From the IMG/VR virus record IMGVR_UViG_3300010882_000010: 64,000 nt of DNA; one strand, given 5' to 3'. The DNA is from a virus (taxonomy: Duplodnaviria; Heunggongvirae; Uroviricota; Caudoviricetes). The notes beneath the pieces are model-generated. The model made no database searches, was not told the origin of the DNA, and saw only the letters and a program-made list of their open reading frames with translations. Below are positions 8,092-63,740 of the stretch, in pieces. Position 1 is the stretch's first letter; every line of letters starts with the position of its first letter. The translations under genes and the position numbers were made by a program.

Positions 8092-8316
8092 ATGAGAACA
8101 GTTACAGTAACATATGAAACAAGACAAGGAGAACCGGGTTGGGGAGATGGAAGTATGCCACTTTGTGGATTTTACATGTGGGATTCTGATGTTGTAGGAG
8201 ACGGTTGGTGCTCAATTCAAAGCCATAAAACAGGCAATGGTTCAATTGATTTCAAAAAAGATTGCGATAATTGTCATGTTTTAAGAGAAAAAATCAGAGA
8301 ACAAAATGAAGGATAA
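8092..8316 (+). CDS. Hypothetical protein.
   Basis: 74-aa ORF. Confidence 0.4.
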   Translation: MRTVTVTYETRQGEPGWGDGSMPLCGFYMWDSDVVGDGWCSIQSHKTGNGSIDFKKDCDNCHVLREKIREQNEG

Positions 8317-9400
8317 AAGAGGTATTACACCTGGCAAATGGCATGCTATTGCTTGTATTGGTGCTAATAGAGAATTGGGTAAAGATGGTAAATTAATTTG
8401 GAATTTTCCTGAAGATATGAAACAGTTTAAGAAATTAACCGAAGGAAATGTTGTAATTATGGGAAGAAAAACTTGGGATAGTTTACCGAAAAAATTTAGA
8501 CCATTACCTAATCGTAAGAATATCATATTAACACGAAATTTGGATATAGCAGACCAGGAGTCAATTAGTGCGGGTGCTTTTTTTACAACATGTCCCATAA
8601 TAGCAGAAGAACTTGCAGAGGCTCATGCTGAAAGAGAAAATTGTGAAATTTTTGTTATTGGTGGCGCAGAAATTTATCGAATGTTTTGGAATTATGTTGA
8701 TTTTTTACATCTAACTTTAGTAGAAGATGCACATGGTGGTGCAGATACTTTTTTTCCTGAGTATGAAAAACAATTTCAATTTGAGTGTTGTCATGGTAAT
8801 TTAAAAGTTGATGAGTTTAATGGTTTGCAAATTCCAGGTGGTTTGGGTTTTTCATTTCAAAGATTTCACAGAGTTTCTAAAGAAGAACAAATTTTGAATG
8901 AGACTCTTAGAGAATTAGAAAGTGGAGATGAAATTTATCCGGTTTACGTTCCTGTAATGGAAAAACTTTATGATTTTGAAACAATTAAAAAAGCCATAGA
9001 TGATGAAATAGTAGATCATGATACTGTAATTGATTTAATGATAGACAGAAATTTGGGTAAACTTAGAAATTGGATTAGAAGATATCTTAAATTTCAGATA
9101 AGAGAATATCCAAAACCAAATTATCCTAATGGTTGTGTTGGGATTAGAGACAGTCAAGATCCTATTGGAATAAGTGCGCCGGAATATTACAAACAATTAA
9201 TTCGTGATGGTAAGTTTAGACAAGCAGAGCAGATGAAAAAGTACTGTAAACCAGCACCAGGATATGAAATTTGGGGTACTAAAGGTTTTTCAAGACAAGG
9301 ATGTTGTGATGGGGTTAAAGTGGAAGAAAAGAGAATGAAACATGCTTTGGATTACAATTGGGAAGAAATTAGAAATTTAATTCATCCAAAATTAGATTAA
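8306..9400 (+). CDS. Dihydrofolate reductase (N-terminal ~180 aa) fused to a C-terminal domain of unknown function (~180 aa).
   Basis: N terminus AIACIGANRELGKDGKLIWNFPEDMKQFKKLTEGNVVIMGRKTWDSLP...LPNRKNIILTR...IGGAEIY matches the FolA/DHFR signature. At 364 aa it is about twice DHFR length. Confidence 0.8.
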   Translation: MKDKRGITPGKWHAIACIGANRELGKDGKLIWNFPEDMKQFKKLTEGNVVIMGRKTWDSLPKKFRPLPNRKNIILTRNLDIADQESISAGAFFTTCPIIAEELAEAHAERENCEIFVIGGAEIYRMFWNYVDFLHLTLVEDAHGGADTFFPEYEKQFQFECCHGNLKVDEFNGLQIPGGLGFSFQRFHRVSKEEQILNETLRELESGDEIYPVYVPVMEKLYDFETIKKAIDDEIVDHDTVIDLMIDRNLGKLRNWIRRYLKFQIREYPKPNYPNGCVGIRDSQDPIGISAPEYYKQLIRDGKFRQAEQMKKYCKPAPGYEIWGTKGFSRQGCCDGVKVEEKRMKHALDYNWEEIRNLIHPKLD

Positions 9401-10803: not shown

Positions 10804-11102
10804 AAAATAGTAGCACATGTGTTTAAAAAGAAAAGCGAAAGTAACTTTCACAATAGAAGAGGTTGAAATAATGACTCAACTTTTAATAGACAAGTACAAT
10901 GATCTTCAAGCCAATATTAACAGAAATGATAGTTACAAAGGTAATTACATGCACAAACAGGCAGAAGTAATGAAAATTATTAAGAAATTGTAATGGGTAA
11001 AGAAAGAGAAAAGTTAGTTTTACATGATACTTTTTGGATGCCATTAGCATGTGGTGCTATTTTTGGTTTGCTTTTAGTTTTAATGATAGTTTTGATGCAG
11101 TC

Positions 11103-36041: not shown

Positions 36042-36046
36042 TAGAA

Positions 36047-37218: not shown

Positions 37219-37233
37219 TTAAAACACAAAATA

Positions 37234-37461
37234 ATGAGTAAGTACGAAACACTTTCAAGATTAGATGAACTTAGAGAAGAAGAAAAATGGCCAGTGGTAG
37301 AAATGGAATTATGGGATGGTCAAGTTTTGCATGGTCTTTACAGAGGTATGGATGGAGATGATACTTTAATGTTGAAAAACATGGAAAGAACATCCACACT
37401 TGGTTGGCATGTTGAAACTATTAAGAACATTACACTTTTAAAAGAAGATCAAAATGACTAA
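37234..37461 (+). CDS. Hypothetical protein.
   Basis: 75-aa ORF. Confidence 0.4.
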   Translation: MSKYETLSRLDELREEEKWPVVEMELWDGQVLHGLYRGMDGDDTLMLKNMERTSTLGWHVETIKNITLLKEDQND

Positions 37462-37699
37462 AGAAGAACAAGTTATTATTAAAACATCTTCATACACCGA
37501 GACTTTTCCGGAATCTTCTTGTAAAGTTAAAGTTGCTATTAGAGCAGTTGGATGGGATAAAAATGATTGTTTCAAAACTTACGTCTATGAAGATGCCATC
37601 TATGATGGTGGATTTGTTACTATTCCAGAAAAGAAACAGTCCTACCTTGCTTTTAATTTTCTCTTTCACAAGTTGAAACGTGAAGATTTAAAGAACTAA
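37454..37699 (+). CDS. Hypothetical protein.
   Basis: 81-aa ORF. Confidence 0.4.
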   Translation: MTKEEQVIIKTSSYTETFPESSCKVKVAIRAVGWDKNDCFKTYVYEDAIYDGGFVTIPEKKQSYLAFNFLFHKLKREDLKN

Positions 37700-37714
37700 A
37701 AAAGACTAAAAACA

Positions 37715-38473
37715 ATGAGTTTGATTAATGTTCTTAAACGAGCAAAACAATACAGTAATGTTATTGCTGTTGGTGATATTCATGGTCAGACATCTGAGTT
37801 AGGTTACAGGATTAAAAAGCGTTACAATATTGAGAATAGTGTTATTATTCTTTGCGGTGATATTGGAGTTGGTTTTCACAAGTTTAACTACCATAAAGAT
37901 GACTTTGCACGGTTAGATACTATTGCTAAATCTAGCAAAAATTTGATTATTGTAGTACGTGGAAATCATGATGATCCTACTTATTTTGATGGAAGTTTTA
38001 ACATGTTTACCAATATTGCTTTTGTACCAGATTACACAGTAGTAGAGACAAAAAACCAAAGAATACTTTGTGTAGGTGGTGGTGTTTCTATTGATAGGAC
38101 AGATCGAAAATTGGGAAGTTCTTATTGGGGTGATGCGGAGTTACCTGTTTATGATGAAGAGTTGTTAAAATCAGCAGGAGAAATTGATGTAATCTGTGCA
38201 CATGGAGCACCATCTTGGTGTGAACCGAGTAATAAAGATGGAATTGACTATTGGATTTCAAAAGATTCAGAATTAAGCAAGGACATCGACTATGAACGAA
38301 AAGTGATGGATCAGATTTTTAATTACTTAGAGAAAAACACAAAGAGTTTGAATTTTTGGGTTTATGGTCATTATCACATGTCAAAATCTCAAAATTATGA
38401 TGGGATGCGATATCGTGCTATTGATTGTATGGAATTTTTTCCAATTCCAGACCTTGATAGAAAATCGGAATAG
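37715..38473 (+). CDS. Calcineurin-like metallophosphoesterase (Ser/Thr phosphatase / ApaH / RNA-repair phosphoesterase family).
   Basis: IAVGDIHGQ (GDxHG), CGDIGVG (GDxxDRG-like) and VRGNHDD (GNHE/D). Confidence 0.7.
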   Translation: MSLINVLKRAKQYSNVIAVGDIHGQTSELGYRIKKRYNIENSVIILCGDIGVGFHKFNYHKDDFARLDTIAKSSKNLIIVVRGNHDDPTYFDGSFNMFTNIAFVPDYTVVETKNQRILCVGGGVSIDRTDRKLGSSYWGDAELPVYDEELLKSAGEIDVICAHGAPSWCEPSNKDGIDYWISKDSELSKDIDYERKVMDQIFNYLEKNTKSLNFWVYGHYHMSKSQNYDGMRYRAIDCMEFFPIPDLDRKSE

Positions 38474-38484
38474 ATAGTAAAAGG
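38467..38484 (+). promoter_or_regulatory. Copy 4 of the motif (GGAATAGATAGTAAAAGG).
   Basis: One mismatch (A to G); 11 nt upstream of the ATG at 38496. Confidence 0.5.
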
Positions 38485-38495
38485 AATAGTAAGAA

Positions 38496-39491
38496 ATGAC
38501 AGGTCATACAGTTTACCTTAAAGATACAGAAGAAAATCAATCACCTCTTTATACTAAAGAATTTTTTGATTATTCTAAAAACACAAGCGCACAATTTGAA
38601 GCATACATCAGTGGTCAGAATTATTGGAATAAGCCGTTAAGTAGACTTGATATTCATGGAGTTTACTATATTGGAAGTGGTTCACAATATGAAGGACAAT
38701 CTGGGGGTATTTCAGGAATACTTTTAGTGCATCATGAACCCGGGACTGTAAAAGAAGAGTTTGCACCATTAGATATTAAGTTAGACCAATTATTGCAAAC
38801 TGAAATTACTAACTTAGGACAAATTTTAAATGTTAGATTAACTCAAGATTCAGAATGCCCGCCTGTTGATATGAGAGAATTTGGTATTGAAAATTCAGCA
38901 GGAGAAATAGCATCACTTTACATCAACGAGAAAAAACAATTCAGATTTTTTAGTCATCATATTGGAAGACCAATTTTGGATATGGAAGGAGAGCGAGAAG
39001 AAAACAAATGGTTTACAATTACAAGACTTAATCAAAGTGCAACATCTGGATTTGATAGTCGTGAATTAAAATCATCCATGAATCCGATAGCAGATAATGA
39101 TACTAAAAAATATCGGTTGATTTTTTGGGATTTGACAAAGCGTTGTATGCTTTATGTTTACAAAGCACCGGCAAATCTTGGAGATGTAGGCGAGTTCTAT
39201 GAAAATTTGGAATTGATAGCAAAAACTGTAACTAACAAAGGATTTGATTTGGCGGCTGATGTTACTTTGGGATTTGGTACTTACTTTATCAGATTGAGAA
39301 TAATTGAAGATGGTTGTACTAAATTTAATCTTGATTTAAGAGAAATTGGTACTAATAGTGGAGAAATCGGATTTGAGTTTGAAAATCCATTTAGCAATAC
39401 AATAATAATGCCAATTACAGGAGATGGTCCTCCTACAGGAGAAACAGGAACAACAGGTTCTACCGGAAGTACCGGGGTTACAACAAGATAA
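38496..39491 (+). CDS. Probable structural (tail or fibre) protein with a C-terminal collagen-like G-X-T repeat tail.
   Basis: The C terminus is GDGPPTGETGTTGSTGSTGVTT. An immediately upstream GGAATAGATAGTAAAAG copy lies at 38467-38484. Confidence 0.5.
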   Translation: MTGHTVYLKDTEENQSPLYTKEFFDYSKNTSAQFEAYISGQNYWNKPLSRLDIHGVYYIGSGSQYEGQSGGISGILLVHHEPGTVKEEFAPLDIKLDQLLQTEITNLGQILNVRLTQDSECPPVDMREFGIENSAGEIASLYINEKKQFRFFSHHIGRPILDMEGEREENKWFTITRLNQSATSGFDSRELKSSMNPIADNDTKKYRLIFWDLTKRCMLYVYKAPANLGDVGEFYENLELIAKTVTNKGFDLAADVTLGFGTYFIRLRIIEDGCTKFNLDLREIGTNSGEIGFEFENPFSNTIIMPITGDGPPTGETGTTGSTGSTGVTTR

Positions 39492-39527
39492 AACAAAAAA
39501 TTTTGCTTTTTTAGTTACTATCGAGAA

Positions 39528-39615
39528 ATTGTTAGTAACTTTTTTCTTTTAAAGACGTTTCGTATCAGTATTTTTAGTATTTTTACAGTATCAAAACAAT
39601 CAAAATTCAATCAAA
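39528..39615 (+). promoter_or_regulatory. Promoter element copy E (near-duplicate of copy A).
   Basis: aattgttagtaacttttttcttttaaagacgtttcgtatcagtatttttagtatttttacagtatcaaaacaatcaaaat. Confidence 0.55.
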
Positions 39616-39972
39616 ATGTCACAAGAAAAATTAACAAAAGAACACATCCAACTGAAGCTGGAAACTGACATCCGTTGGTTAGAAAGAGCAGTTGTAGCAA
39701 TTTGGGAATTCCAAACTGAACAAGAAAAATCTTACCAATCTACTTTAGAGTTTAATGGTGTAGGTTTTAATGGTTCAGATGCTCCATTTTTAACGAGTAT
39801 TGCCAATCATCTTAACAAAGGAAGACATCTTACTGAAAAGCAAATCCCTTACGTTCGTAAGAAAATGAAAAAGTATGCTGGTCAACTTTTGAGAATTGCA
39901 AATGCTAAAGCAGTAGCTAAAGCACAGAGAGAAGAAAATCAATCAAATTATCAACTTAAAATCAATTACTAA
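39616..39972 (+). CDS. Hypothetical protein.
   Basis: 118-aa ORF downstream of promoter element copy E. Confidence 0.45.
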   Translation: MSQEKLTKEHIQLKLETDIRWLERAVVAIWEFQTEQEKSYQSTLEFNGVGFNGSDAPFLTSIANHLNKGRHLTEKQIPYVRKKMKKYAGQLLRIANAKAVAKAQREENQSNYQLKINY

Positions 39973-39973
39973 G

Positions 39974-40165
39974 ATGAACACAATTAGAATTTCCATGTCA
40001 ATAATGTCCTATCTTTCAGATGCACAAGCAATGATAGAATTAGGTATGCTTAAAGAAGCAAATGCCAGAATTAACTGTGCAAAATCAATTTTGTTAGATT
40101 TTCCGAATACTAATGAGGAAGTAGACAAAAGAGCAATTTACGAATCAATTAAAGAATGGTTGTAA
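39974..40165 (+). CDS. Hypothetical protein.
   Basis: 63-aa ORF. Confidence 0.4.
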   Translation: MNTIRISMSIMSYLSDAQAMIELGMLKEANARINCAKSILLDFPNTNEEVDKRAIYESIKEWL

Positions 40166-41430
40166 TGGAAGGAATAGTAATAATTAACAATGCACAGACA
40201 CAAGCAGGTAAGATTTTATTGGAACTTGAATGTGAACGAATAGTAAACCAAGAACCATTCATTACAAATCTTATTGCAATAGGTGGAAAGCCATATTATG
40301 TTGGCGGTTTTGTAAGGGACTATTTAATGGGTAGACCTAATAAAGATATTGACATCATAGTTGAAGGGCTTAATATTGAACAGATTAGAAAATCTTTGAC
40401 TTACTTTGGTAAAGTAGATGTTGTTGGAGAAAGTTTTGCGGTTGTAAAGTTTAAATCTTCAGATACCGGAATTGAGTATGATATTGCAGCACCAAGAATC
40501 GACAAGAAAGTTGCAGAAGGTCACAAAGGGTTTGAAGTTGTTTCAGGAAGTGAAGTAACTTTAGAAGAGGATCTTTTGCGTAGAGATTTCAGAATTAATA
40601 GTATTGCAGTTGACATCCAAACAGGGAAAATAGTGGATCCATTTAATGGAATTGCTGATATTGAAAAACGTAGAATTACAATGACAAATCCTCAAGCTTT
40701 TCTTGATGATCCATTGAGAATTTTAAGGGCTGTTCAATTTTCTATTCGGTTTGATTTTTCAATAACAGATGGAACTTTCCAATTGATGAGAGAACATATG
40801 AAGTTGATTAAAGAAATTCCTGGCGAGAGAATACATGAAGAGTTTGTTAAAATTGCTATGAAAAATGGCAGTGCTATTAAGACTTACCAATTATTAAGAC
40901 AGTTGAATTTTCATCAATACTTTAATAGTAGTATGCAATGGGTAATTAATTCAGTTCAAGATCTTAAGATTGGAAGATTAAAGACAGGAATTTACGAGTA
41001 CAATACAATGGGTGAGTTTTTTACTATCATTTGCGGTTGTCATTCTAAAGCACCGGAATTTTATCAAGAAGTTTTGAAGGGTGAAACAAGCACATATAAA
41101 CAGATGAAAGCCATTCTATTTTACAAGAAAAACAGGTTTGAACATCCGGGAATTTTGGCAAGTAAAATGGTGAAGATTACGAATGATAGTTTTAGTTTTA
41201 CTAAAAATGTTGTGCCAGATGATGAAGTAAGAAGGTACTTGCATGATATGAGAGATGAGATATTGCCGGCATACGTAAAGGATTTGAAAATTAATGGTAA
41301 TGATGCAATAGAAGCAGGATATGAAGGTAAAAGAATTGGAGATATCTTGCAACGACTTTACGAAGGGGTAATAATGGGATGGTTTCCAAATGAACGTGAA
41401 AAATTGTTAGAACTTTTAAAATTAAAGTAA
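40156..41430 (+). CDS. tRNA nucleotidyltransferase (CCA-adding enzyme / poly(A) polymerase family, class II).
   Basis: Head-domain signature GGKPYYVGGFVRDYLMGRPNKDIDIIVEG (GGxVRD ... DxD). Confidence 0.75.
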   Translation: MVVMEGIVIINNAQTQAGKILLELECERIVNQEPFITNLIAIGGKPYYVGGFVRDYLMGRPNKDIDIIVEGLNIEQIRKSLTYFGKVDVVGESFAVVKFKSSDTGIEYDIAAPRIDKKVAEGHKGFEVVSGSEVTLEEDLLRRDFRINSIAVDIQTGKIVDPFNGIADIEKRRITMTNPQAFLDDPLRILRAVQFSIRFDFSITDGTFQLMREHMKLIKEIPGERIHEEFVKIAMKNGSAIKTYQLLRQLNFHQYFNSSMQWVINSVQDLKIGRLKTGIYEYNTMGEFFTIICGCHSKAPEFYQEVLKGETSTYKQMKAILFYKKNRFEHPGILASKMVKITNDSFSFTKNVVPDDEVRRYLHDMRDEILPAYVKDLKINGNDAIEAGYEGKRIGDILQRLYEGVIMGWFPNEREKLLELLKLK

Positions 41431-44771: not shown

Positions 44772-45392
44772 ATGAAAAGAGAAGATTGTCCATTCTGTAA
44801 TGTTGCAGAATTGGGTCATGAAATTATCATAGAAACAGAAAATTGTGTTTCGTTTTACAACAAGTTTCCAATTTGCAAAGGTCATGCACTTGTTGTTTGT
44901 AAAGATCACCGAGGATTAAAATCAAAGTGGTACAATGAGTATTGGCAATTGATTGAAGATACAGTTAAAATTTTAGAAGTAAAGTTCCATCCTGATGGTA
45001 TGAACATCGGAATGAATCGAGGTTTTTATGCTGGTCAATCAGTAGAGCATGAACATATGCACTTAATTCCGAGATACAAAGGAGATGTTGAAAATCCTAT
45101 CGGAGGGGTTTGCAATATTGTACCACATCTTCCGAGTTATTACAAAAATGAAGAAAATGAAACTTGCCATTTACCAGCAAATTTAAAGCCCGGTGAAGCA
45201 ATGAAGTATGGAAATTTTGCTATTACATGCTTGGATTTTACTAAAATAGAAACAAAAGAATCAATGCCTGTTCCTTGTGAGTATTGTGATTTGCAATATC
45301 ATGATGTTTTCAATCAATGTCAAAATTTTGTTGATTGTGATCTTTCAGGTGATACAACAGTTTACAGAGTAACTAACTTAATGAAAGAATAA
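44772..45392 (+). CDS. HIT-family (histidine triad) nucleotide hydrolase with a Cys-rich C-terminal extension.
   Basis: N-terminal CPFCNV, the histidine triad EHEHMHLIPR (HxHxHxx), and a C-terminal CEYCDLQYHDVFNQCQNFVDCD cluster. The start is set at the ATG at 44772; the track's upstream start overlaps the previous gene. Confidence 0.7.
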   Translation: MKREDCPFCNVAELGHEIIIETENCVSFYNKFPICKGHALVVCKDHRGLKSKWYNEYWQLIEDTVKILEVKFHPDGMNIGMNRGFYAGQSVEHEHMHLIPRYKGDVENPIGGVCNIVPHLPSYYKNEENETCHLPANLKPGEAMKYGNFAITCLDFTKIETKESMPVPCEYCDLQYHDVFNQCQNFVDCDLSGDTTVYRVTNLMKE

Positions 45393-46339
45393 TGAGAATT
45401 TTAGTTTTTGGTTCAACTGGTCAATTGGGACAGTGTTTCAAGGAGATTCACAAGAATTATCCAGAACATGATTTTGTTTTCTTGACAAGACATGAGCTTG
45501 ATTTAATGAAATGTTGTCTTGAAGATAAGACTAGACTTTCAAATTATTTTAGGTTAACACATCCTGATATTGTAATTAATTGTGCTGGTTACACAGATGT
45601 AGAAAAAGCAGAGTATGATACTTTAAATTGTTTTACTTTAAATGCTTTAGTTCCACAGGAAATGGCACTTAGATGTAAAGAGCAAAATATCAAGTTTATC
45701 CATTTTTCAACAGATTACGTTTTTAATGGAACTAAGAAAGGTGAGTATGTTGAAGGAGATGATATTGTGTTTCAAAGAGCAACCAATTTCTATGGTTTTT
45801 CAAAACAATTGGGCGAGCAATACGTACTACATGAAAATCCGGTAGGTTTTATCATTAGAATTTCAGGATTAGTTTCTACTTATGGTAAGAACTTTGTGAA
45901 AACTATGATTAAAAAATTTCAAGATAATGCAAATTTCAAAGATCTTAAAGTAGTTAGAGATCAATGGACTAAGTTAACATCCGGACATGATTTAGCAGAA
46001 TTTGTGATGCACTTGATTAATGACTATGAATGCAAGCCACAATGTATGATTAAAGGTCCTATTCAAGGAATTGACATCTTACACTATGGAAATGCGCCAT
46101 CTAATTCTTGGTATTATTTTGCAAGATTAATTCAAGAAAAGATGATAGAACTTGAAATTCCTAATGAATGCACTTTAATACCGGTTGATACAGATAAAGA
46201 ATCTACAATAGCCAAAAGACCACAAAATTCAGTACTTAATAATCTAAAGACAATAATCCAATACAATGATACTCCGGGATTGATAGATGATACTATTAAA
46301 AGAATTATCCAATCTGAGTTAAAAGAAAATTGTTCGTAA
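45392..46339 (+). CDS. NAD(P)-dependent epimerase/reductase (RmlD-like short-chain Rossmann protein).
   Basis: N-terminal MRILVFGSTGQLGQ glycine-rich dinucleotide-binding motif and ~315 aa length. The last codons and stop (AAT TGT TCG TAA) lie in promoter element copy H. Confidence 0.65.
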   Translation: MRILVFGSTGQLGQCFKEIHKNYPEHDFVFLTRHELDLMKCCLEDKTRLSNYFRLTHPDIVINCAGYTDVEKAEYDTLNCFTLNALVPQEMALRCKEQNIKFIHFSTDYVFNGTKKGEYVEGDDIVFQRATNFYGFSKQLGEQYVLHENPVGFIIRISGLVSTYGKNFVKTMIKKFQDNANFKDLKVVRDQWTKLTSGHDLAEFVMHLINDYECKPQCMIKGPIQGIDILHYGNAPSNSWYYFARLIQEKMIELEIPNECTLIPVDTDKESTIAKRPQNSVLNNLKTIIQYNDTPGLIDDTIKRIIQSELKENCS

Positions 46340-46408
46340 CTTTTGACAAAGAACTAAAGAACGTAAACTAATTTTCACTATTTTTACCAACTTTTAAACA
46401 CTAACACG
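46328..46408 (+). promoter_or_regulatory. Promoter element copy H, a variant (TTGTTCGTAAC) upstream of the sigma-factor gene.
   Basis: aattgttcgtaacttttgacaaag ... cactatttttacc; ATG at 46409. Confidence 0.45.
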
Positions 46409-47116
46409 ATGGCAACGAAAAAAACAAAAGAAGCTAAAGAACAACGAAACACTAAAGATATTCAATTGCTTGCAACTGAATTTATCAATACTAAATCAGA
46501 AGAAGCATACACTCAAATTGTGAAGAGATTAACACCGGGTTTGCACAAGCATATCATGGAAATTGAACCTAACCAAGAAAAAAGAAAAGAAATCATCAAT
46601 GATGTTTTTGTTAAAGTTTGGACAAAAATCCATCAATATAATCCAGAATTTGGTGCTTTTTCAACTTGGATCTACAAAATAGCATACAATGACGTTTTAC
46701 TTTCAAAAAGAAACAGTTTTAGAACAACTTCTATTGATGGTGGAAATGAAGACACAACAAACGTAACTTTATCTCCTCTTAACTCTATTCAATATTCCTA
46801 CAAAATGAATGAGGAGTTTGATACTTACAAAGATAACAATGTTATTGATGAATTGTATGGAATGGTTAAAACAATGATTTTGAATTTTCCAGAATCAGAG
46901 AAGTACAAAAATTGGAAAACAGCTTTCTTGCTTAAAGATATTGAGGGATACCAATTTAATGAAGTTGCTGAATTAATGAATGAAAATGAAAACACAGTAA
47001 AAGGATGGGTTTGTAAAGCTCGTAGACACTTAGCAAAAATGACCAATAAAGAAGATCAAAATTTGGTTGAAGATTACTTTGCTTATCGCTACGAGTATGA
47101 AAACAATCCGTATTAA
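46409..47116 (+). CDS. Sigma-70-family (ECF-like) RNA polymerase sigma factor.
   Basis: Region-2-like FSTWIYKIAYNDVL and a region-4 helix-turn-helix YQFNEVAELMNENENTVKGWVCKARRHLAK. Confidence 0.75.
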   Translation: MATKKTKEAKEQRNTKDIQLLATEFINTKSEEAYTQIVKRLTPGLHKHIMEIEPNQEKRKEIINDVFVKVWTKIHQYNPEFGAFSTWIYKIAYNDVLLSKRNSFRTTSIDGGNEDTTNVTLSPLNSIQYSYKMNEEFDTYKDNNVIDELYGMVKTMILNFPESEKYKNWKTAFLLKDIEGYQFNEVAELMNENENTVKGWVCKARRHLAKMTNKEDQNLVEDYFAYRYEYENNPY

Positions 47117-54866: not shown

Positions 54867-54941
54867 CCGTTTTCGTGGTGTAATGGCGTGCATAACTCCC
54901 TGTCACGGAGTAGGTCGGAGTTCGAACCTCCCGGGGACGGC
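54867..54941 (+). tRNA. Putative tRNA-Asp (anticodon GTC); weak acceptor and D stems.
   Basis: Anticodon arm actcc-CTGTCAC-ggagt and T arm ggag-ttcgaac-ctcc. The acceptor ccgtttt/gggacgg needs 3 G-U pairs. Confidence 0.4.
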
Positions 54942-54965
54942 AAAACAAAAAGAGCAAAAAACTAA

Positions 54966-55030
54966 AATTGTTAGTAACTTTTTCCAACTATTAGAAGTTG
55001 GTATTGAAATTTTTAGTATTTTTGTACTGT
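54966..55030 (+). promoter_or_regulatory. Promoter element copy G, upstream of the main tRNA array.
   Basis: aattgttagtaactttttcc ... tagtatttttgtac (55017-55024). Confidence 0.5.
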
Positions 55031-55145
55031 TCTTTGACATCTTGAATGAAAAAGTAAAGTAAAAAAGCAGATTCACTTTACTACCATGAACGAGGGATCC
55101 TATGGGTAAACTCTTAAAATGGAATTGTAATGGATTTGCTATTAT

Positions 55146-55218
55146 GCTCCTGTCATCTAAGGGTTTAGGATAAGTGATTTTCGATCACTAAATCGGGGTT
55201 CGAATCCCCGTGGGAGTA
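55146..55218 (+). tRNA. tRNA-Glu (anticodon TTC).
   Basis: Acceptor gctcctg/tgggagt, D stem atct/ggat, anticodon arm agtga-TTTTCGA-tcact, T arm cgggg-ttcgaat-ccccg. No encoded CCA. Confidence 0.7.
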
Positions 55219-55624
55219 CAAAGTTGTTAAAAGACGTTTTAATAACCTGGAGAGTTCGAAATCTCCGATCGAGCATAGTTTAGAGGGAACAGCCTGTCTG
55301 TGTAGGTCTAATTGACCGATAAGACGGGCGGGTGTAAGGTTCGAATCCTTATGGTTTGGCAGAATTTTGATTTGAAATTATCATTAGAGGTGTTAGTCCA
55401 TGTAGATTAACACCTCAGTGGTTAGGAAATCAAAGAAAAAACAACAACAGAATACTAAACATTGCGATGAGGGTCTGCAATATGGTACTAGTAAAACATC
55501 TCCCAAGGTGAATTAGAGGCGGGTTCCGCGGCATGTTAAACCTTAAAACATTGAAGTTTGGTAATTCTGTTTTTTTAATTAGGTACAATAGTTAAAATGA
55601 AAAGGCAATAAGCCCAATAAAAAT

Positions 55625-55644
55625 AGAGATACATAGTAAAAAGA
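55625..55644 (+). promoter_or_regulatory. Copy 8 of the motif, degenerate (GAGATACATAGTAAAAAG).
   Basis: Upstream of the ATG at 55653 (Vsr-like endonuclease). Confidence 0.35.
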
Positions 55645-55652
55645 AGATTACT

Positions 55653-56471
55653 ATGCCTCGAAAAATTATTGATACTTTAAGAAATTGTGAAAATTGTGAA
55701 ATTGAATTTTTTGGACATACAAGGTTTTGTTCATTAAGTTGTAAAGGAAAGTATCTTGCCAAACGTTCATTAGAAGTACGAAAAGAATTGGGTGTATCTA
55801 TCGGAGCTAAAGTAGGTAGAAAAAACAAGAATGCACTTGGAAATTGGAAATGTGAAATTTGTGAAGAAGTTTTTAGAACAAGAAGAGAATTACAAGATCA
55901 TAAAAAAGTTCATGGAACAAGCATAGAACGAAACAAAGAAAAATTAAAAAAGGAGTACACTTGTCAATATTGTGGTAGATTGAAAATAACTACAAAAGAA
56001 GGTGCAACTAATCACGAAAGAGTTTGTAAAGAAAATCCTAATAGACAAAAAACATCACAAGAAGGAAAATCATTAACAGTAGAACACAAACAAAATGTTT
56101 CTAGAGGAATGAAAAAAGCACACGAAGAAGGACGAGCTTGGAATATTGGAAAAAGTAGATGGAATAATGAACCTTCTTATCCTGAAAAATGGTTTATGCA
56201 AGTAATAGAAAATGAGTTTAATGATAAATTGTATGAAAGAGAGTATTCTTGTAGTATTTACTCAATTGATTTTGCATGGGTGCATAAAATGAAAGGTATT
56301 GAAATTGATGGTTCACAACATCAAAGATTTAAAGAATATCAAGAAAGAGATGAGAGAAAAATGAAAAAGTGTACTGAATTTGGATGGAAAATTTTAAGAA
56401 TATCGTGGAAAGAATGTTTTAATAATCCAAAACAATGGATTAAAATAGCAAAAGAATTCATTGAAAATTAA
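55653..56471 (+). CDS. Homing endonuclease-like protein: C2H2/zinc-ribbon motifs, a NUMOD3-like segment, and a C-terminal DUF559/Vsr-like PD-(D/E)xK domain.
   Basis: CENCEIEF..CSLSC; CEICEEVFRTRRELQDHKKVH; NUMOD3-like LTVEHKQNVSRGMKKAHEEGR; C-terminal YSIDFAWVHKMKGIEIDGSQHQ...ERDERKMKKCTEFGWKILRISWKE. Inserted inside the tRNA array. Confidence 0.65.
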   Translation: MPRKIIDTLRNCENCEIEFFGHTRFCSLSCKGKYLAKRSLEVRKELGVSIGAKVGRKNKNALGNWKCEICEEVFRTRRELQDHKKVHGTSIERNKEKLKKEYTCQYCGRLKITTKEGATNHERVCKENPNRQKTSQEGKSLTVEHKQNVSRGMKKAHEEGRAWNIGKSRWNNEPSYPEKWFMQVIENEFNDKLYEREYSCSIYSIDFAWVHKMKGIEIDGSQHQRFKEYQERDERKMKKCTEFGWKILRISWKECFNNPKQWIKIAKEFIEN

Positions 56472-56472
56472 A

Positions 56473-56544
56473 GGGCTGGTAGCTCCAATGTAGAGCGGAA
56501 TCCTGTTAAGATTATGGTTGGTGGTTCAAGTCCACCCCAGCCCG
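56473..56544 (+). tRNA. tRNA-Asn (anticodon GTT).
   Basis: Acceptor gggctgg/ccagccc (perfect), D arm gctc-caatgta-gagc, anticodon arm gaatc-CTGTTAA-gatta, T arm ggtgg-ttcaagt-ccacc. Starts 2 nt after the upstream stop codon. Confidence 0.85.
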
Positions 56545-56745
56545 CAAAAAAATCAACAAACTGGATCCGACGTAATACAGAAGAAAAAACGGGGAAACAG
56601 AATTGCAATTAGATTGCTAATTTTGCTAATCATTTAGCTCATCCACAGTAGTCAGTTTGTTTTTAAAGAAATAGTGCGGGATAGACTGGAGGTGGTTCCA
56701 GCTCGGTCTCAATAAAGTATCCAACTTACTGTTAATTAGTTGGTT

Positions 56746-56791
56746 ACCGGAAAATAGTTGGAATATTAGGGTTCGAATCCTTATTCCGGTA
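56746..56791 (+). ncRNA. tRNA-like minihelix (acceptor stem plus T arm only).
   Basis: accggaa-aatagttggaatat-taggg/ttcgaat/cctta-ttccggt-a, with a perfect 7-bp acceptor-like stem. Confidence 0.4.
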
Positions 56792-56843
56792 CTAAGCCGA
56801 ACTACGTGGGTTCGACTCCCACTCCCGCTACAAAGTTTGATAC

Positions 56844-56897
56844 TTTTGATTTTTTGGGAAAAATCCGGATAGGTGAGTTCGAATCTCACATCAAAAG
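56844..56897 (+). ncRNA. tRNA-like minihelix (acceptor stem plus T arm only).
   Basis: ttttgat-tttttgggaaaaatccggatag-gtgag/ttcgaat/ctcac-atcaaaa-g, with a perfect 7-bp stem. Confidence 0.4.
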
Positions 56898-57119
56898 TAA
56901 AGAACCTAAAAGATAGGTTGTTAAGTGACTGAGCCTGAACGTATTCACTCTATGTACTCGGCTTTAACATGAAAGTAAAGGAAATTCCTGGGTGAACTAG
57001 CAGGTGGTAAAACTAGAACGAAGTAAGATGCTCTGTTTGAAGAATGAAACATCATCTGGCAACGGGGTTGTGTAGCCAAAGTTGACAACCAAGATCAACA
57101 CTTACTATCTTTTTCTCAT

Positions 57120-57192
57120 AGTGCTGAGGTCAAACGGTTAAGATGTCGCCCTGTCACGGCGTACGGAGCGGGTTCAACTCCCGTCAGCACTG
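57120..57192 (+). tRNA. tRNA-Asp (anticodon GTC).
   Basis: Acceptor agtgctg/cagcact (perfect), anticodon arm cgcc-CTGTCAC-ggcg, T arm gcggg-ttcaact-cccgt. Confidence 0.7.
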
Positions 57193-57600
57193 CATAATTA
57201 TCTAAAAAGATGCGGATTGAGTACTTTTGGTGAAACATGTGGAGAAACCAAAAGGATTAGCAAATTCAAGAAGGTGTTTTTAGGATTATGGCTTATTTGG
57301 ACTGCTATTCAAGTAGGTTGCAATAATTTCTAACTATTGGTGTAATTAGGTAACACGCTCTTCGAGGAGGAGGGAATTGAGAGTTCGAGTCTTTCATAGT
57401 AAGAAAGGTTTGCGTAGGTATTGCATAGCATTAAGGTTTAATGTGCTGGGAGGAAATCCCGGAGAATGGGTTCGAATCTCAACAATATCACAAAATGGCG
57501 AAGTACGCCCGTAATTGGTACACGGGGTCAATCTGAAAATTAAAAGATTGAATACTGCAAAGATTTCATTGTAAGTTCGATTCTTTCCTTCGCCGCAAAT

Positions 57601-57730
57601 TAGGGTGTAGCTCAGTGGTTAGAGCGCGTAAAATTCAACAACTAAAATCTGATAGTCAAAGGTTTTATGCAGCAAAAAATTAGAAATTGCATTCAGGAGC
57701 ACGATGTCGGTGGTTCGAATCCATCCACCC
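57601..57730 (+). tRNA. tRNA-like gene with a ~55-60 nt insertion in the anticodon region (candidate intron-containing or otherwise atypical tRNA).
   Basis: Canonical 5' half tagggtg-ta-gctc-agtggtta-gagc-g and 3' end ggtgg-ttcgaat-ccatc-cacccta (perfect 7-bp acceptor), but about 83 nt lie between the D stem and the T stem where about 22 are expected. Confidence 0.4.
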
Positions 57731-57817
57731 TAACTTTTTAAGTGCTTGTAGCAAAACGGCTTCGCCGCTGGCTTTTAACCAGCAGAAGGAGGTTCGACTC
57801 CTCCCAGGCACACTTAG

Positions 57818-57890
57818 GCTCTTATGGCGCAATTGGTAGCGCTGCTGGTTCTTACCCAGTAGGTTGGTGGTTCGAATCCATCTAGGAGTA
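57818..57890 (+). tRNA. tRNA-Lys (anticodon CTT).
   Basis: Acceptor gctctta/taggagt, D arm gcgc-aattggta-gcgc, anticodon arm gctgg-TTCTTAC-ccagt, T arm ggtgg-ttcgaat-ccatc. Confidence 0.7.
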
Positions 57891-58080
57891 CACAAAGGTT
57901 TCTTACAGCAACTTTTAGGACTCAACTTTTAATTGAACATTCTGAATGAAACCTGAAATTTTACATCCACAGTTTAATGGTTAAATACCTGAGATGCATG
58001 TCATGAAACTTGGGAGTTTGTCAGTTCGAGTCTGACTGGATGTGCTAAAAATCTTAACAAAATGGAAAACTTTAAGTAAT

Positions 58081-58156
58081 GGCCGAGTAGCTGCAATTGG
58101 TACAGCGCGGGTGTGAAGTACCCGGACTCTTGTAGGTTCGACTCCTACCTTGGCCA
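58081..58156 (+). tRNA. tRNA-Phe (anticodon GAA).
   Basis: Acceptor ggccgag/cttggcc, D arm gctg-caattggta-cagc, anticodon arm cgggt-GTGAAGT-acccg, T arm gtagg-ttcgact-cctac. Confidence 0.8.
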
Positions 58157-58165
58157 CAAAATCAT

Positions 58166-58241
58166 TGACCTCTAGCGAAATTGGTTTAATGCAGCGCGCT
58201 CATAACGCGAAGATGTACAGGTTCGAGTCCTGTGGGGTCAA
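58166..58241 (+). tRNA. tRNA with anticodon CAT (Met, initiator, or a lysidine-Ile tRNA).
   Basis: Acceptor tgacctc/ggggtca, anticodon arm gcgc-CTCATAA-gcgc, T arm acagg-ttcgagt-cctgt. Confidence 0.65.
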
Positions 58242-58247
58242 CAATAT

Positions 58248-58318
58248 TGGAGATTGTTGTAACAGTAGCGATTTGGTTTTACATACCAACAGAGGCGGGG
58301 CAGCACCGTCATCTCCAA
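58248..58318 (+). tRNA. tRNA-Val (anticodon TAC).
   Basis: Acceptor tggagat/atctcca (perfect), anticodon arm ttggt-TTTACAT-accaa, and a non-canonical T loop (ggcgg-ggcagca-ccgtc). Confidence 0.6.
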
Positions 58319-58327
58319 CAAACTTAT

Positions 58328-58399
58328 TGCCTGCTAGCTCAGAAGTAGAGCAATCGGCTGATATCCGATAGGTGCGAGGAGCATTACCTCGGCAGGCAA
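58328..58399 (+). tRNA. tRNA-Ile (anticodon GAT).
   Basis: Acceptor tgcctgc/gcaggca (perfect), D arm gctc-agaagta-gagc, anticodon arm atcgg-CTGATAT-ccgat, T arm cgagg-agcatta-cctcg (non-canonical loop). Confidence 0.7.
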
Positions 58400-58508
58400 C
58401 TAATCATAAAACACTTATGGATGCAATTCTTATCTATTGTTATCGTGGTAAGTTGCAGAATTTTTAAGTCGACTATGGAATTTTAAGTGCCCTTTGATGA
58501 TTCTTTAT

Positions 58509-58578
58509 TGCAATGTAGATAATGATAGTCATACGGTTTCATGAACCGGAAGTCTTGGTTTGAATCCAAGCATTGCAA
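58509..58578 (+). tRNA. Second tRNA with anticodon CAT (Met, fMet or Ile2); degenerate D arm.
   Basis: Acceptor tgcaatg/cattgca (perfect), anticodon arm cggt-TTCATGA-accg, T arm cttgg-tttgaat-ccaag. Confidence 0.5.
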
Positions 58579-58585
58579 CAATTAA

Positions 58586-58658
58586 GCCTCTGTAGTTCAA
58601 TTGGATAGAACAAGAGATTTCTAATCTCTAAATCGGGAATCATGCTCCTGTGGAGGTA
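58586..58658 (+). tRNA. tRNA-Arg (anticodon TCT).
   Basis: Acceptor gcctctg/tggaggt (3 G-U pairs), D arm gttc-aattggata-gaac, anticodon arm agaga-TTTCTAA-tctct, T arm cggga-atcatgc-tcctg. Confidence 0.65.
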
Positions 58659-58686
58659 CTAAATTTTAGTTTTCAAAAAATTACTT

Positions 58687-60167: not shown

Positions 60168-61406
60168 ATGATTTTATCAGAACAACACATCATTAAAAAA
60201 TCAAATCCTCTTTATCAAGAGTTAGATATGTTGTGTTTTTTATCTAAAAATCTCTACAATTTAGCTCTTTATTCTGTACGCCAACACTATTTTGAAACAG
60301 GAAAGTTTTTGGGAAAATTTGAGTTAATTAAGAACTTCACAAAGGAGAAACAGAAAGATTTTAAAAAATTAACGCATAGAGTAGCACAACAAATTATTTT
60401 TCAAGTAGAACAAGATATGCGTTCATTTTTTGCTCTTTTAAAGTTAAAACAAAAAGGACAATATCAAGGTAAAGTTAAATTACCTAAGTACAAAGAAAAA
60501 CAAGGTAGGAATGTAGCAATTTTTGAGATAATGGGTATTTCAGGAAAAGAATTAAAGAAAGGAATTATCAAATTTGGTGGAATGGAAATTAACAAAAAGT
60601 TTGTTCCGTTGGTTAAAAGAACCATCAAAACCAAACAATCTAAAGTTCAACAAGTTAGAATAATCCCTAAAAACGGATACTATACTGTAGAAGTGCTTTA
60701 CAAAGTAGAATCAAAACAAAAGAAAGAAGATAATCAAAAGTACTTATCAATTGATTTGGGCATAAACAACTTAGCAACTTTAACTTCTAATGTAACTAAA
60801 CCTATCATAGTAAACGGGAAACCTGTAAAGAGTATTAACCAATTTTACAATAAAACTAAAGCAAAACTCTCTTCACAATTAGAAACAGTAAACAAAACTA
60901 AATCATCAAAAAGAACTCAATCTTTATCCTTAAAGAGAAACAACAAAATTAAAGATTACTTTCACAAGACATCTAGATTCATAGTGAATCACGCAATTTC
61001 TAATGACCTTAATACCATAATTATCGGTAAAAATCAAGGCTGGAAACAAGACACAAATCTAGGTAGAGTTAATAATCAAAAGTTTGTTTCAATTCCGTTT
61101 AACAATTTAATTCAAATGATAAGCTACAAAGCTGAATTACAAGGAATTAAAGTTATTGTAAGAGAAGAAAGTTACACAAGCCAAGCAAGTTTCTTAGATA
61201 ATGATTTCATACCAAAGTATGGGGATAAGGAAATTAAGGAATTTAGCGGGAAAAGGATTAAGAGAGGTCTCTACCAGACTAAAAATGGTAGATTAATTAA
61301 TGCTGATGTTAACGGAAGTTTAAACATCATGAAAAAAGAAGTTCCAAATGCCTTAAATGGATATGGAATAGAGGTGTGCAGCACGCCATTAGTTGTAGGA
61401 TTCTAG
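60168..61406 (+). CDS. TnpB-like RuvC nuclease (IS200/IS605 OrfB family) with no zinc-finger cysteines.
   Basis: RuvC-I YLSIDLGINNLATL, RuvC-II VIVREESYTSQ, RuvC-III ADVNGSLNIMKK. There is no CxxC pair between the RuvC-II and RuvC-III motifs. Preceded by AGAATAGATAGTAAAAG (60143-60159). Confidence 0.75.
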   Translation: MILSEQHIIKKSNPLYQELDMLCFLSKNLYNLALYSVRQHYFETGKFLGKFELIKNFTKEKQKDFKKLTHRVAQQIIFQVEQDMRSFFALLKLKQKGQYQGKVKLPKYKEKQGRNVAIFEIMGISGKELKKGIIKFGGMEINKKFVPLVKRTIKTKQSKVQQVRIIPKNGYYTVEVLYKVESKQKKEDNQKYLSIDLGINNLATLTSNVTKPIIVNGKPVKSINQFYNKTKAKLSSQLETVNKTKSSKRTQSLSLKRNNKIKDYFHKTSRFIVNHAISNDLNTIIIGKNQGWKQDTNLGRVNNQKFVSIPFNNLIQMISYKAELQGIKVIVREESYTSQASFLDNDFIPKYGDKEIKEFSGKRIKRGLYQTKNGRLINADVNGSLNIMKKEVPNALNGYGIEVCSTPLVVGF

Positions 61407-61815: not shown

Positions 61816-62112
61816 ATGAGCACATCAGAAATTAAAGCATGTCCAAGAACAATAGAGGAAATTTTTCCATTGACTATTGTAATGATGAGATATGGTGGTA
61901 AAATTGTGATTTGCAATACAATAGCTGATAATTCAACAATTCAGGATTTGCAAGAAAGTGAAGAGCCGATGTATGATATTGATGGGTACATAACAAAATG
62001 GAGTTGTTTTGACTATGGATATGGTGATACAATATGGCAAGCTTTTGAAGATTACCAAAAGAGAATTTTAGGAGAATGGCAAGTTCCTGGATTATCAAAA
62101 AGAAAAGACTAA
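61816..62112 (+). CDS. Hypothetical protein.
   Basis: 98-aa ORF. Confidence 0.45.
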   Translation: MSTSEIKACPRTIEEIFPLTIVMMRYGGKIVICNTIADNSTIQDLQESEEPMYDIDGYITKWSCFDYGYGDTIWQAFEDYQKRILGEWQVPGLSKRKD

Positions 62113-62129
62113 AAAGACTAAGAATACTA

Positions 62130-63740
62130 ATGAAACAATACCTTGAATTATGCAAAGAGATAATCCAAGATGGAGAATTAAAAACGCCGGCGAGAAAAAA
62201 CATGCCAGCAACCATAGAACTTTTTAAGAGAGATTTGAGTTTTGATCTCAGAGAAGGTTTTCCGTTATTAACAACAAAAAAAGTTAACTTAAAGAACATC
62301 ATTACTGAATTATTTTGGTTTTTGAATGGTGAGAGTGATGTTAGATTTCTCACCAAACGAGGTTGTAATATCTGGAATGAGGATACTTTCAAGTTTGTTA
62401 AAGCGCAATATGAAAAAGAAAGTGAACCGGTTTTTAAATCACTGGGATTTGATGTGAAATTTCCAACCTATGAAGAGTGGATTAAGATTGGTAAAGGTGA
62501 GATGGAATGGCAATTTACACCAAATGCAGAAGCACCTATTAACAGGTATTTTGAAGGCGGCGAAGTGTATGGAAGACACTGGAGAAACTTTAACAATTTG
62601 ATACTTAATGATATACCTGTAATTAAGGATGGCGCTGATAGAGGATTTACCGATTTAATAATGAACGGAACAGATCAATTTTTGGCTTTAATTAATGGAA
62701 TTTTAACTAATCCCGATTCTCGTTATCATATTGTGAGTGCCTGGAATCCAACTGTTTTAGAAAAGAAAATGGCATGTTTACCAAGTTGTCATATCCTCTA
62801 TCAGTGTTCAATTTCAAAATCACGTTATCTTGATCTTTACATCTATCAAAGGAGTTGTGATTTTCCATTGGGTGTACCATATGATATCGCAAGTTATGCT
62901 ACTTTAATGCACATCATTTGCTATTTGACCGGATATGAACCTGGAATGTTACATTGGACGGGTGGAAGTTGTCATCTTTATGAAAATCAAATTACTACAA
63001 TGAGAGAACAGGTAGAGAGAAATCCAAAAGTACTACCAAAACTAAAGTGTGAATTAAAAGATGTTTTAGAACCAAACACAGAAGGAAGTGAATTAGGTCT
63101 TAAAATTTCTAGGCATATTAATGATAGTACACCATACACCAAAGAAGAACTTGCTGAGATTTTTGTTCCTGAAAGTTGGATTATTGAACTTGAAAATTAT
63201 GATAGTTATCCTGTGATAAATTATCCATTCTCTTCAGGCAAGGACAGATTTTGTAATGTTGCAGCAATAATTACCGTGCAAAATGGTGAAGAATTTACCT
63301 ACAAGCAAAATGTTGAAGAGTGGATGGTACATAATCCGAGAATGTTCAAGAATTTTGCAAAGAATGGAGTTGTTGTAACAGATGAAAATGGAAGAGCTTT
63401 GCTAAGTTCAAGATTAGGAATTGAAAATTGTTACACTTTGATGGAAGGAGACGATCCTAAAGAATTTTTAGAAGAGTTAAGAAAAACACAAGATCAAGTA
63501 GTTTACCTTTTTGGAAACTGGTCTTTGTATGAAAAGTTTTTGAAAGCAAGTTTGGTAGATGTAATTTACGGAACTTTTTGGTGTCAAGCATACGATTATT
63601 CAGATAAGAAATCTGTTAATGTTGATTGGGTAATGGATGATTTTGAAAGTGTATGGAGTTCTAATATCGAAGAAAACGGAAGGAAAAGTTATCAGTACAT
63701 TTGGCACAATAAAGAGTTCATTAAAAAATATCGAAAGTAA
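62130..63740 (+). CDS. Thymidylate-synthase-family enzyme, probably a dCMP hydroxymethylase or methylase (Asp at the ThyA Asn177 position), fused to a ~230 aa C-terminal domain.
   Basis: MKQYLELCKEI...GFPLLTTKKVNLKNIITELFWFLNG; catalytic Cys in LPSCHILYQ; RSCDFPLGVPYDIASYATLMHII, where ThyA has ...PFNIASY. The C-terminal half has a DHFR-like ...VVYLFGNWSLYEKFL segment. Confidence 0.75.
   Translation: MKQYLELCKEIIQDGELKTPARKNMPATIELFKRDLSFDLREGFPLLTTKKVNLKNIITELFWFLNGESDVRFLTKRGCNIWNEDTFKFVKAQYEKESEPVFKSLGFDVKFPTYEEWIKIGKGEMEWQFTPNAEAPINRYFEGGEVYGRHWRNFNNLILNDIPVIKDGADRGFTDLIMNGTDQFLALINGILTNPDSRYHIVSAWNPTVLEKKMACLPSCHILYQCSISKSRYLDLYIYQRSCDFPLGVPYDIASYATLMHIICYLTGYEPGMLHWTGGSCHLYENQITTMREQVERNPKVLPKLKCELKDVLEPNTEGSELGLKISRHINDSTPYTKEELAEIFVPESWIIELENYDSYPVINYPFSSGKDRFCNVAAIITVQNGEEFTYKQNVEEWMVHNPRMFKNFAKNGVVVTDENGRALLSSRLGIENCYTLMEGDDPKEFLEELRKTQDQVVYLFGNWSLYEKFLKASLVDVIYGTFWCQAYDYSDKKSVNVDWVMDDFESVWSSNIEENGRKSYQYIWHNKEFIKKYRK

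Follow-up and report, generated by a model that had tools for sequence, protein, structure and literature searches.

The 64,000-nucleotide stretch analysed here (hereafter the window; IMG/VR record IMGVR_UViG_3300010882_000010, a virus of the Caudoviricetes) carries at positions 62130-63740 a gene for a thymidylate synthase (TS) homologue of the ThyA family, in which the residue that governs base specificity is aspartate instead of asparagine. The presence of Asp at this position is real and uncommon among homologues. We read the gene as a canonical ThyA that a single natural substitution has converted into a deoxycytidine monophosphate (dCMP) methylase, which would make 5-methyl-dCMP, and we put the probability of this reading at about 0.55. 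ThyA homologues that methylate dCMP are already known, e.g. from phage Xp12; the one unusual feature of the present protein is a fused domain with a degenerate dihydrofolate reductase (DHFR) fold.

Aspartate at the base-specificity position of a ThyA-type protein

The features on which the argument relies are as follows.

62130..63740, + strand: whole gene, a ThyA-type domain followed by a C-terminal DHFR-fold domain, 536 amino acids (aa) (ORF list; gene calls on five contigs)
62130..63236, + strand: ThyA-type domain, aa 1-369 (PF00303, PDB phmmer, BLASTP, Foldseek)
62778..62792, + strand: codons of Leu217-Pro-Ser-Cys220-His221 (HMMER alignment, MAFFT L-INS-i)
62883..62885, + strand: codon GAT of Asp252, equivalent to E. 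coli Asn177 and L. casei Asn229 (alignments and sequence read)
63243..63737, + strand: degenerate DHFR-fold domain, aa ~372-536, ~165 aa (tblastn, AF2 with Foldseek, residue table)
8306..9400, + strand: separate gene for a canonical DHFR with a ~175-aa extension (PF00186, residue table)

The identical 536-aa protein is encoded on five contigs, the largest being a 219-kb contig of an uncultured phage. The enclosing open reading frame (ORF) spans 62076..63740 on the + strand, and the ATG at 62130, chosen as the start by gene callers on all five contigs, opens a sequence (MKQYLELCKEI...) that is colinear with the N-terminus of E. coli ThyA. Indeed, the 1611-bp gene shows 100% DNA identity in two further contigs (L001 and L002), from ENA samples ERZ27257304 and ERZ27257295, and this identity between independent assemblies makes a read or assembly error unlikely. 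With the ORF intact as well, we rejected a sequencing error or a pseudogene. A megablast search of GenBank phages with 14 kb returned no match, so that there is no annotated close relative from which annotation could be borrowed.

The protein clearly belongs to the ThyA family. Pfam PF00303 (Thymidylat_synt) matches aa 2-308 at 2.5e-71, the top solved relatives in a PDB phmmer search are true thymidylate synthases (~1e-47), and BLASTP aligns the protein to E. coli ThyA with 32% identity (9e-48). The TS fold is equally recognizable in the AlphaFold2 (AF2) model, which is confident for the whole protein (mean pLDDT 88.6, pTM 0.88): Foldseek matches it to the L. casei, E. faecalis and E. coli enzymes with E ~1e-29 and a target-normalised TM of 0.79-0.92 over ~370 columns. 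The domain carries a helical insert in the small domain (aa ~86-140), a hairpin (aa ~153-181) and a helical insert of ~40 aa (aa ~310-350). The Pfam match ends at aa 308 because this last insert comes next, before the conserved C-terminal TS tail, INYPFSS at aa 363-369, which aligns to IKAPVAI of E. coli. An earlier sequence-only reading of this DNA had recognised the landmarks of a TS and quoted the motifs LPSCHILYQ and GVPYDIASY; the family assignment and the catalytic set are borne out, and so are both motifs, the former at aa 217-225 with the catalytic Cys220 and the latter at aa 248-256. The C-terminal domain of ~230 aa that it described has to be redrawn, as it consists of the ~40-aa insert within the TS domain and a domain of ~165 aa (aa 372-536), whose DHFR fold that reading had missed.

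Alignments on E. coli numbering were made with HMMER, BLASTP and MAFFT (including L-INS-i). HMMER (against the S. aureus and E. faecalis TS), BLASTP (against E. coli ThyA) and MAFFT agree in aligning Asp252 with E. coli Asn177. The Asn-to-Asp switch proposed from the sequence is thereby confirmed: the alignment check suggested with that proposal returned Asp, not Asn, at the Asn177-equivalent. A canonical TS specific for dUMP (EC 2.1.1.45) has here an Asn that hydrogen-bonds O4/N3 of uracil, whereas the present protein has Asp252, like the 5-methyl-dCMP synthase of Xp12. The codon, GAT, lies one transition away from AAT (Asn). We then counted the residue at this position in the best 120 homologues: the motif was present in 111, with Asn in 106 and Asp in five. 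As Asn is kept in so many relatives, the position is under strong constraint in true TS.

That Asp determines pyrimidine specificity, as the sequence-only reading had assumed, is backed by published work (PMC8670742; bioRxiv 10.1101/2024.12.05.627091). The N177D or N229D change turns E. coli and L. casei TS towards dCMP, in the statements quoted by PMC8670742 and PMC13326640. In metaviromes, Asp177 is the residue most associated with cytosine-modified contigs, position H147 coming second (PMC8670742). Moreover, the Xp12 TS and five of seven metagenomic Asp177 homologues gave 5-methyldeoxycytidine (5mdC) in vivo (bioRxiv 10.1101/2024.12.05.627091).

Predicted chemistry and rival readings

Apart from Asp252, the protein has the residues with which a true TS carries out reductive methylation. 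The catalytic Cys is Cys220 (E. coli C146), Leu217 lies three residues before it (position -3, E. coli L143) and His221 corresponds to H147; A216, L217 and H221 are nearly invariant in a family alignment of 80 sequences. In E. coli numbering, the protein keeps E58, W80, Y94, R126, L143, C146, H147 and Q165, as well as R166, S167, C168, D169, G173, H207, Y209 and R21 (R22), and the catalytic residues of a TS are all found (C220, E60, Y147, R241-S242-C243-D244, H282 and Y284). A different placement of L143 given by MAFFT --add, with a two-residue gap beside the catalytic Cys, was rejected, as HMMER, L-INS-i and the rule of counting -3 from the Cys all give Leu.

These residues discriminate between the reactions known for Asp177 proteins. 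Hydroxymethylases are marked by Asp or Glu at -3 from the Cys (E. coli L143, T4 Asp145), by Ser or Thr before the catalytic Tyr and by the lack of a C-terminal tail (PMC6400193, PMC13326640), and flavin-dependent 5-hydroxy-dCMP synthases by D169N (PMC13326640). None of these marks is found here: the residue at -3 is Leu217, the Tyr stands in Glu145-Val146-Tyr147 with no counterpart of T4 Ser94, the tail is present, and the position that is Asn in enzymes of the RB69 gp48 type is Asp244. Reductive methylation goes with a non-acidic residue at -3 and a retained Asp169, as provided by Leu217 and Asp244. The sequence-only reading had left the choice between a dCMP hydroxymethylase and a methylase; the methylase is the better supported option (Leu217, Asp244, tail), and the hydroxymethylase is disfavoured, as no published signature of that activity is present. 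On these residues, we consider a T4-type hydroxymethylase or a 5-hydroxy-dCMP synthase unlikely.

The predicted reaction would run as follows. Asp252 would hydrogen-bond N3 and the 4-amino group of cytosine, so that the enzyme would take dCMP instead of dUMP. Cys220 would attack C6, the methylene of 5,10-methylenetetrahydrofolate (5,10-CH2-THF) would pass to C5, and the exocyclic methylene would be reduced by hydride from tetrahydrofolate (THF), yielding 5-methyl-dCMP and dihydrofolate (DHF). Hydride reduction, and not hydroxymethylation, would be expected from the retention of Leu217, which excludes water, and of Val146-Tyr147, Asp244 and the C-terminal tail. The separate DHFR (8306-9400) would regenerate THF and, after phosphorylation, 5-methyl-dCTP would enter the phage DNA, replacing C in part or completely. 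Deamination of a fraction of this nucleotide could, as in Xp12, supply dTTP. A plausible consequence, suggested by the one residue, would be 5-methylcytosine (5mC) in the phage DNA.

Relatives place the substitution in an evolutionary frame. In a neighbour-joining tree of 80 relatives, the protein groups with P0002 and P0003, which both have the pseudo-DHFR fusion and Asn177; in the tabulated active-site residues, they differ from it only at position 177. Asp177 variants occupy five separate tips of this tree, each amid Asn177 sequences, suggesting a recurrent single-residue functional switch. Since Asn is found in the closest relatives that carry the fusion, the Asp represents an independent single-residue switch within canonical ThyA rather than descent from the Xp12 or T4 lineage. 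The contig of P0002 displays similar nearby genes (sigma factor, PD-(D/E)XK nuclease, TS fusion) and encodes a protein with a type IX secretion system (T9SS) sorting domain, a hint that the host may be among the Bacteroidota. Two Asp-type relatives have their own arrangements. In P0076, the TS lies two genes from a DHFR. In P0044, which also has Asp177 (L010 9504-10912), a gene of the dUTPase/dCTP-deaminase family (PF00692, 4e-14) ends 2 bp before the TS gene, within a DNA-replication module, an arrangement more typical of a cytosine-modifying phage than that of the window.

Partner genes were sought in ~82 kb of the 219-kb contig, i.e. the 64-kb window with 8.4 kb upstream and 9.7 kb downstream, using precomputed Pfam hits and our own Pfam and PHROG scans of candidates. 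Neither a glycosyltransferase nor a DNA methyltransferase was detected in this DNA, and the search for dCTPase, dNMP kinase and glycosyltransferase genes that had been proposed with the sequence-only reading came back empty over the same ~82 kb. No deaminase gene lies in the ~62 kb upstream of the TS gene or in the 10 kb downstream; for comparison, a deaminase homologue lies within 3 kb of the TS in 70% of the modified contigs that have a deaminase gene. The absence of partner genes is partial evidence only, since ~135 kb of the contig lies outside this reading.

The base composition of the same ~82 kb was also considered. Several palindromes and words are under-represented (observed/expected ratios: GATC 0.44, GAATTC 0.36, GGCC 0.5, CTAG 0.28, TATA 0.45), the ratio for CpG is 0.56 against 1.02 in 15 kb of an Asn177 sister phage (L008), and GC skew ranges from +0.14 to +0.35 throughout. 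These values do not discriminate modified DNA, as T4, whose DNA is fully modified, avoids GATC too (0.39).

Several observations weigh against a dCMP methylase. The prediction rests on one residue, and the replacement of His147 seen in Xp12, P0052 and P0065 (Pro in each) is not shared, His221 being unchanged. Two of the seven Asp177 homologues assayed yielded no 5mdC (bioRxiv 10.1101/2024.12.05.627091). The closest proteins sharing the fusion are of the Asn type and, as the gene DNA is identical in every contig that carries the gene and all copies are thus clonal, long-term selection for Asp is not demonstrated. The examined DNA contains no dCTPase/dUTPase, dCMP/dCTP deaminase or dNMP kinase, nor a second ThyA or ThyX. 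Lastly, E. coli W83 and R127 are replaced by Asp and Tyr, respectively, throughout the subfamily, so that the cofactor pocket differs somewhat from that of the model enzymes. These two changes are lineage traits, and W83D is not linked to the specificity switch since Asn177 members carry it too.

Part of this evidence serves the main rival explanation, in which the protein is still mainly or partly a TS converting dUMP to dTMP, the Asp is tolerated, recent or compatible with dual specificity, and the DNA is canonical. Every other active-site residue is indeed that of a canonical ThyA, His147 included, and the closest relatives are Asn-type proteins of the same architecture. Neither a second TS nor an enzyme clearing the cytosine pool was seen in the ~82 kb, a genome with 69% A+T needs much dTTP, and with clonal copies the persistence of Asp is unproven. 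The under-representation of C-containing palindromes (GATC, GAATTC, GGCC) points the same way, though T4 shows it likewise for GATC. However, a single N-to-D exchange suffices to switch the preference of E. coli and L. casei TS to dCMP (as quoted in PMC8670742 and PMC13326640), five of seven natural Asp177 homologues gave 5mdC (bioRxiv 10.1101/2024.12.05.627091), and Asn is kept in 106 of 111 relatives. We therefore hold a retained TS activity to be possible but doubtful. An impaired or non-enzymatic protein, either a decaying gene or a scaffold in which the pseudo-DHFR is the relevant part, has a very slim chance in our view: in its favour stand a DHFR-fold domain that has already degenerated, Tyr in place of R127 and a fusion that deprives TS of its free C-terminal carboxylate, but the 536-codon ORF is intact with all catalytic TS residues conserved, many relatives annotated as TS share R127Y and the extended tail, and the AF2 model is confident.

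The hydroxylating alternatives start from the same Asp. A dCMP hydroxymethylase with the function of T4 gp42, making 5-hydroxymethyl-dCMP for hydroxymethyl- or glycosyl-cytosine DNA, would share the specificity Asp with T4 (Asp179), the subfamily does have Asp at W83, a residue that controls solvent access (PMC6400193), and the window encodes an RmlD-like nucleotide-sugar reductase and a HIT protein at 44772-46339. The W83D change is found in Asn177 members too, however, and the active site carries Leu at -3 from the Cys, Glu-Val-Tyr instead of Ser/Thr-x-Tyr, and a tail; the ~82 kb contain no detected glycosyltransferase or dCTPase, and similarity to gp42 is marginal (E = 0.009). Nor would this activity explain the retention of DHFR, since a hydroxymethylase makes no dihydrofolate; we regard it as quite improbable. 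A flavin-dependent 5-hydroxy-dCMP synthase of the RB69 gp48 / DLP3 gp80 kind would likewise be a ThyA homologue with Asp177 (PMC13326640), but D169N is absent (Asp244 is kept), the residue at L143 is non-acidic and no cluster of arabinosyl- or glycosyl-transferases was found in the ~82 kb, which leaves it a negligible chance.

Should the protein be a dCMP methylase, a new lineage would join the few viruses (Xp12, PaMx74 and metagenomic relatives) that introduce 5mC into DNA at the level of the nucleotide, and the protein would offer a natural case, with Asn-type sisters available for comparison, of a one-residue switch so far shown mainly by mutagenesis. Asp177 TS homologues, several of them with experimental validation, are already known to be common in viromes, so that the finding extends an existing theme. 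dCMP methylases and their companion deaminases are in use as methylation-sequencing tools. A further-reaching version would have the single Asn-to-Asp change, independent of the Xp12 and T4 lineages, produce the sole pyrimidine-C5 methylase of the phage, supplying 5mC DNA and, via deamination, all thymidine, with the dead DHFR-fold domain re-used as a folate-binding, channelling or regulatory module. We consider this version improbable; if true, it would amount to a new architecture for nucleotide-modifying enzymes.

The two DHFR-type proteins and the gene neighbourhood

The fused C-terminal domain was identified by its fold and by gene order. In both Bacillus phage Edson and Vibrio phage helene, the tblastn match to the TS part runs on into dfrA, which comes after thyA. 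The AF2 model of the domain (pLDDT 76) matches PDB DHFRs in Foldseek with E 2e-8, probability 1.0 and TM ~0.55-0.6, and viral DHFR models at 1e-9. By sequence, a PDB phmmer search with the domain gave no hit, and Pfam gave only a sub-threshold RibD_C match (0.063) and no DHFR_1. An exhaustive HMMER search retrieved the domain in only three clusters of 1.84e9 representatives.

The fold is thus that of a DHFR, but the catalytic acid and the NADPH motifs (GRxT, GG) are missing. Compared with E. coli FolA, the domain shows Asn for the catalytic Asp27, TDEN for the GRHT of the NADPH loop and G-N-W for G-G-G, equivalences that are somewhat uncertain at 13-16% identity. The three known members (the present protein, P0002 and P0003) have identical losses at Asp27, GRHT and GGG. 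The domain is probably a DHFR-fold relic of a fused thyA-dfrA pair and, given these residues, probably not a reductase; folate binding, scaffolding or regulation are possible present roles.

The separate gene at 8306-9400 is of another kind. PF00186 matches its aa 14-159 at 2.4e-38, the N-terminal ~160-190 aa form a canonical DHFR, and Asp27, GRKTW, Arg52/Arg57, IGG and Tyr100 are all canonical. Its ~175-aa extension (8876-9400) has no match in Pfam or PHROG. A catalytically complete DHFR fits a dihydrofolate-producing reaction, and this enzyme likely recycles the dihydrofolate that a reductive methylase would release. The sequence-only reading had described a DHFR fusion gene accompanying the TS; the gene is real (PF00186, 2.4e-38), but 53 kb separate it from the TS gene, to which it is not adjacent.

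The window has 31% G+C and all its genes are on the + strand. The neighbours of the TS gene are a TnpB gene, small ORFs, an AAA ATPase, a homing endonuclease and an RNA ligase. TnpB / IS605 OrfB-like genes (PF01385, PF07282) occur at 5946-7301 and 60168-61406, the second ~700 bp upstream of the TS gene, and two RNA-ligase-like genes lie just past the window (L001 16785-18194 and 20737-21303).

A group of genes at 35601-41430 encodes a P-loop kinase (phrog_2071 / polynucleotide kinase), a protein with an RF-1 domain, an NT5C/HAD phosphatase, a metallophosphoesterase and a CCA-adding enzyme. We considered the kinase (35601-36041), the NT5C protein (36664-37218) and the metallophosphoesterase (37715-38473) as a nucleotide-pool module and rejected this idea, since RNA repair is the better fit to their PHROG and Pfam matches (polynucleotide kinase, phosphoesterase) and to the CCA-adding enzyme and RNA ligases nearby. 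The NT5C protein taken by itself is a candidate dNMP phosphatase. Further along, a HIT-family protein, an RmlD-like nucleotide-sugar reductase (PF04321, 2.6e-60) and a sigma-70 family factor follow each other in a row at 44772-47116.

ARAGORN predicts 11 tRNAs (Asp, Glu, Asn, Pro, two Lys, Phe, two Met, Ile, Arg) in a cluster at 54868-58659, to which Rfam adds a hit at 57120-57192 and an unusually long tRNA match of 133 nt at 57601-57733, possibly a tRNA with an intron or insert. Within the cluster, 55653-56471 encodes a protein of 272 aa that combines a C2H2 zinc finger with an endonuclease domain (DUF559 / MTES_1575). The latter presumably has a Vsr-like fold, and no link to the TS variant is established; Vsr-type nucleases act on T:G mismatches arising from 5mC deamination. 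Elsewhere, the phage encodes a SET-domain protein (PF00856, 6.3e-12) at 11049-11507 and two proteins of the Band_7 / flotillin family (31176-32852, and L001 19261-20067).

Comparison with known systems

One of the systems closest to the present one is that of phage Xp12. Its TS homologue, a 5-methyl-dCMP synthase (MT664984, 45326-46195), shares with the present protein Asp177, the catalytic Cys, Asp169, His207 and Tyr209, each genome encodes a DHFR, and the predicted reaction is common to both (dCMP + CH2-THF giving 5-methyl-dCMP + DHF). The two proteins are nevertheless distant (24% identity, 2e-17), and ours falls among canonical ThyA sequences. At H147 and at the residue aligned to L143, Xp12 has Pro and Asn, and the present protein His and Leu. 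Xp12 also groups its TS, a dCMP-deaminase homologue, a DHFR and a HAD hydrolase in one operon, whereas the ~82 kb read here yielded no deaminase, the DHFR gene is separated from the TS gene by 53 kb, and the TS is fused to a pseudo-DHFR domain.

T4 gp42, the dCMP hydroxymethylase to which the sequence-only reading had likened the protein, is also a phage member of the ThyA superfamily with the specificity Asp (T4 Asp179). The likeness goes little further: in BLASTP, gp42 scores E = 0.009 and E. coli ThyA 9e-48, and the present protein differs in having Leu, not Asp, at -3, no residue of the Ser94 type and a C-terminal tail. The dCTPase and glucosyltransferase partners of T4 were not seen in the ~82 kb.

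The linkage of a TS to a DHFR-fold domain recalls the bifunctional DHFR-TS of protozoa and plants, although the order TS-DHFR is opposite to that of the protozoan enzymes. It is the order of the adjacent phage genes thyA and dfrA of Edson, and also of helene. Unlike in DHFR-TS and in the thyA-dfrA pairs, the DHFR-fold domain here is devoid of the catalytic Asp and the NADPH motifs.

The engineered dCMP methylases, L. casei TS N229D and E. coli TS N177D, offer the remaining comparison. The present protein differs from these mutants in being a natural phage protein with large inserts, W83D, R127Y and a C-terminal fusion. It resembles them in having a canonical ThyA scaffold whose sole active-site change is Asn to Asp, and its model superposes in Foldseek on the L. 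casei N229D-dCMP complex (PDB 1njc).

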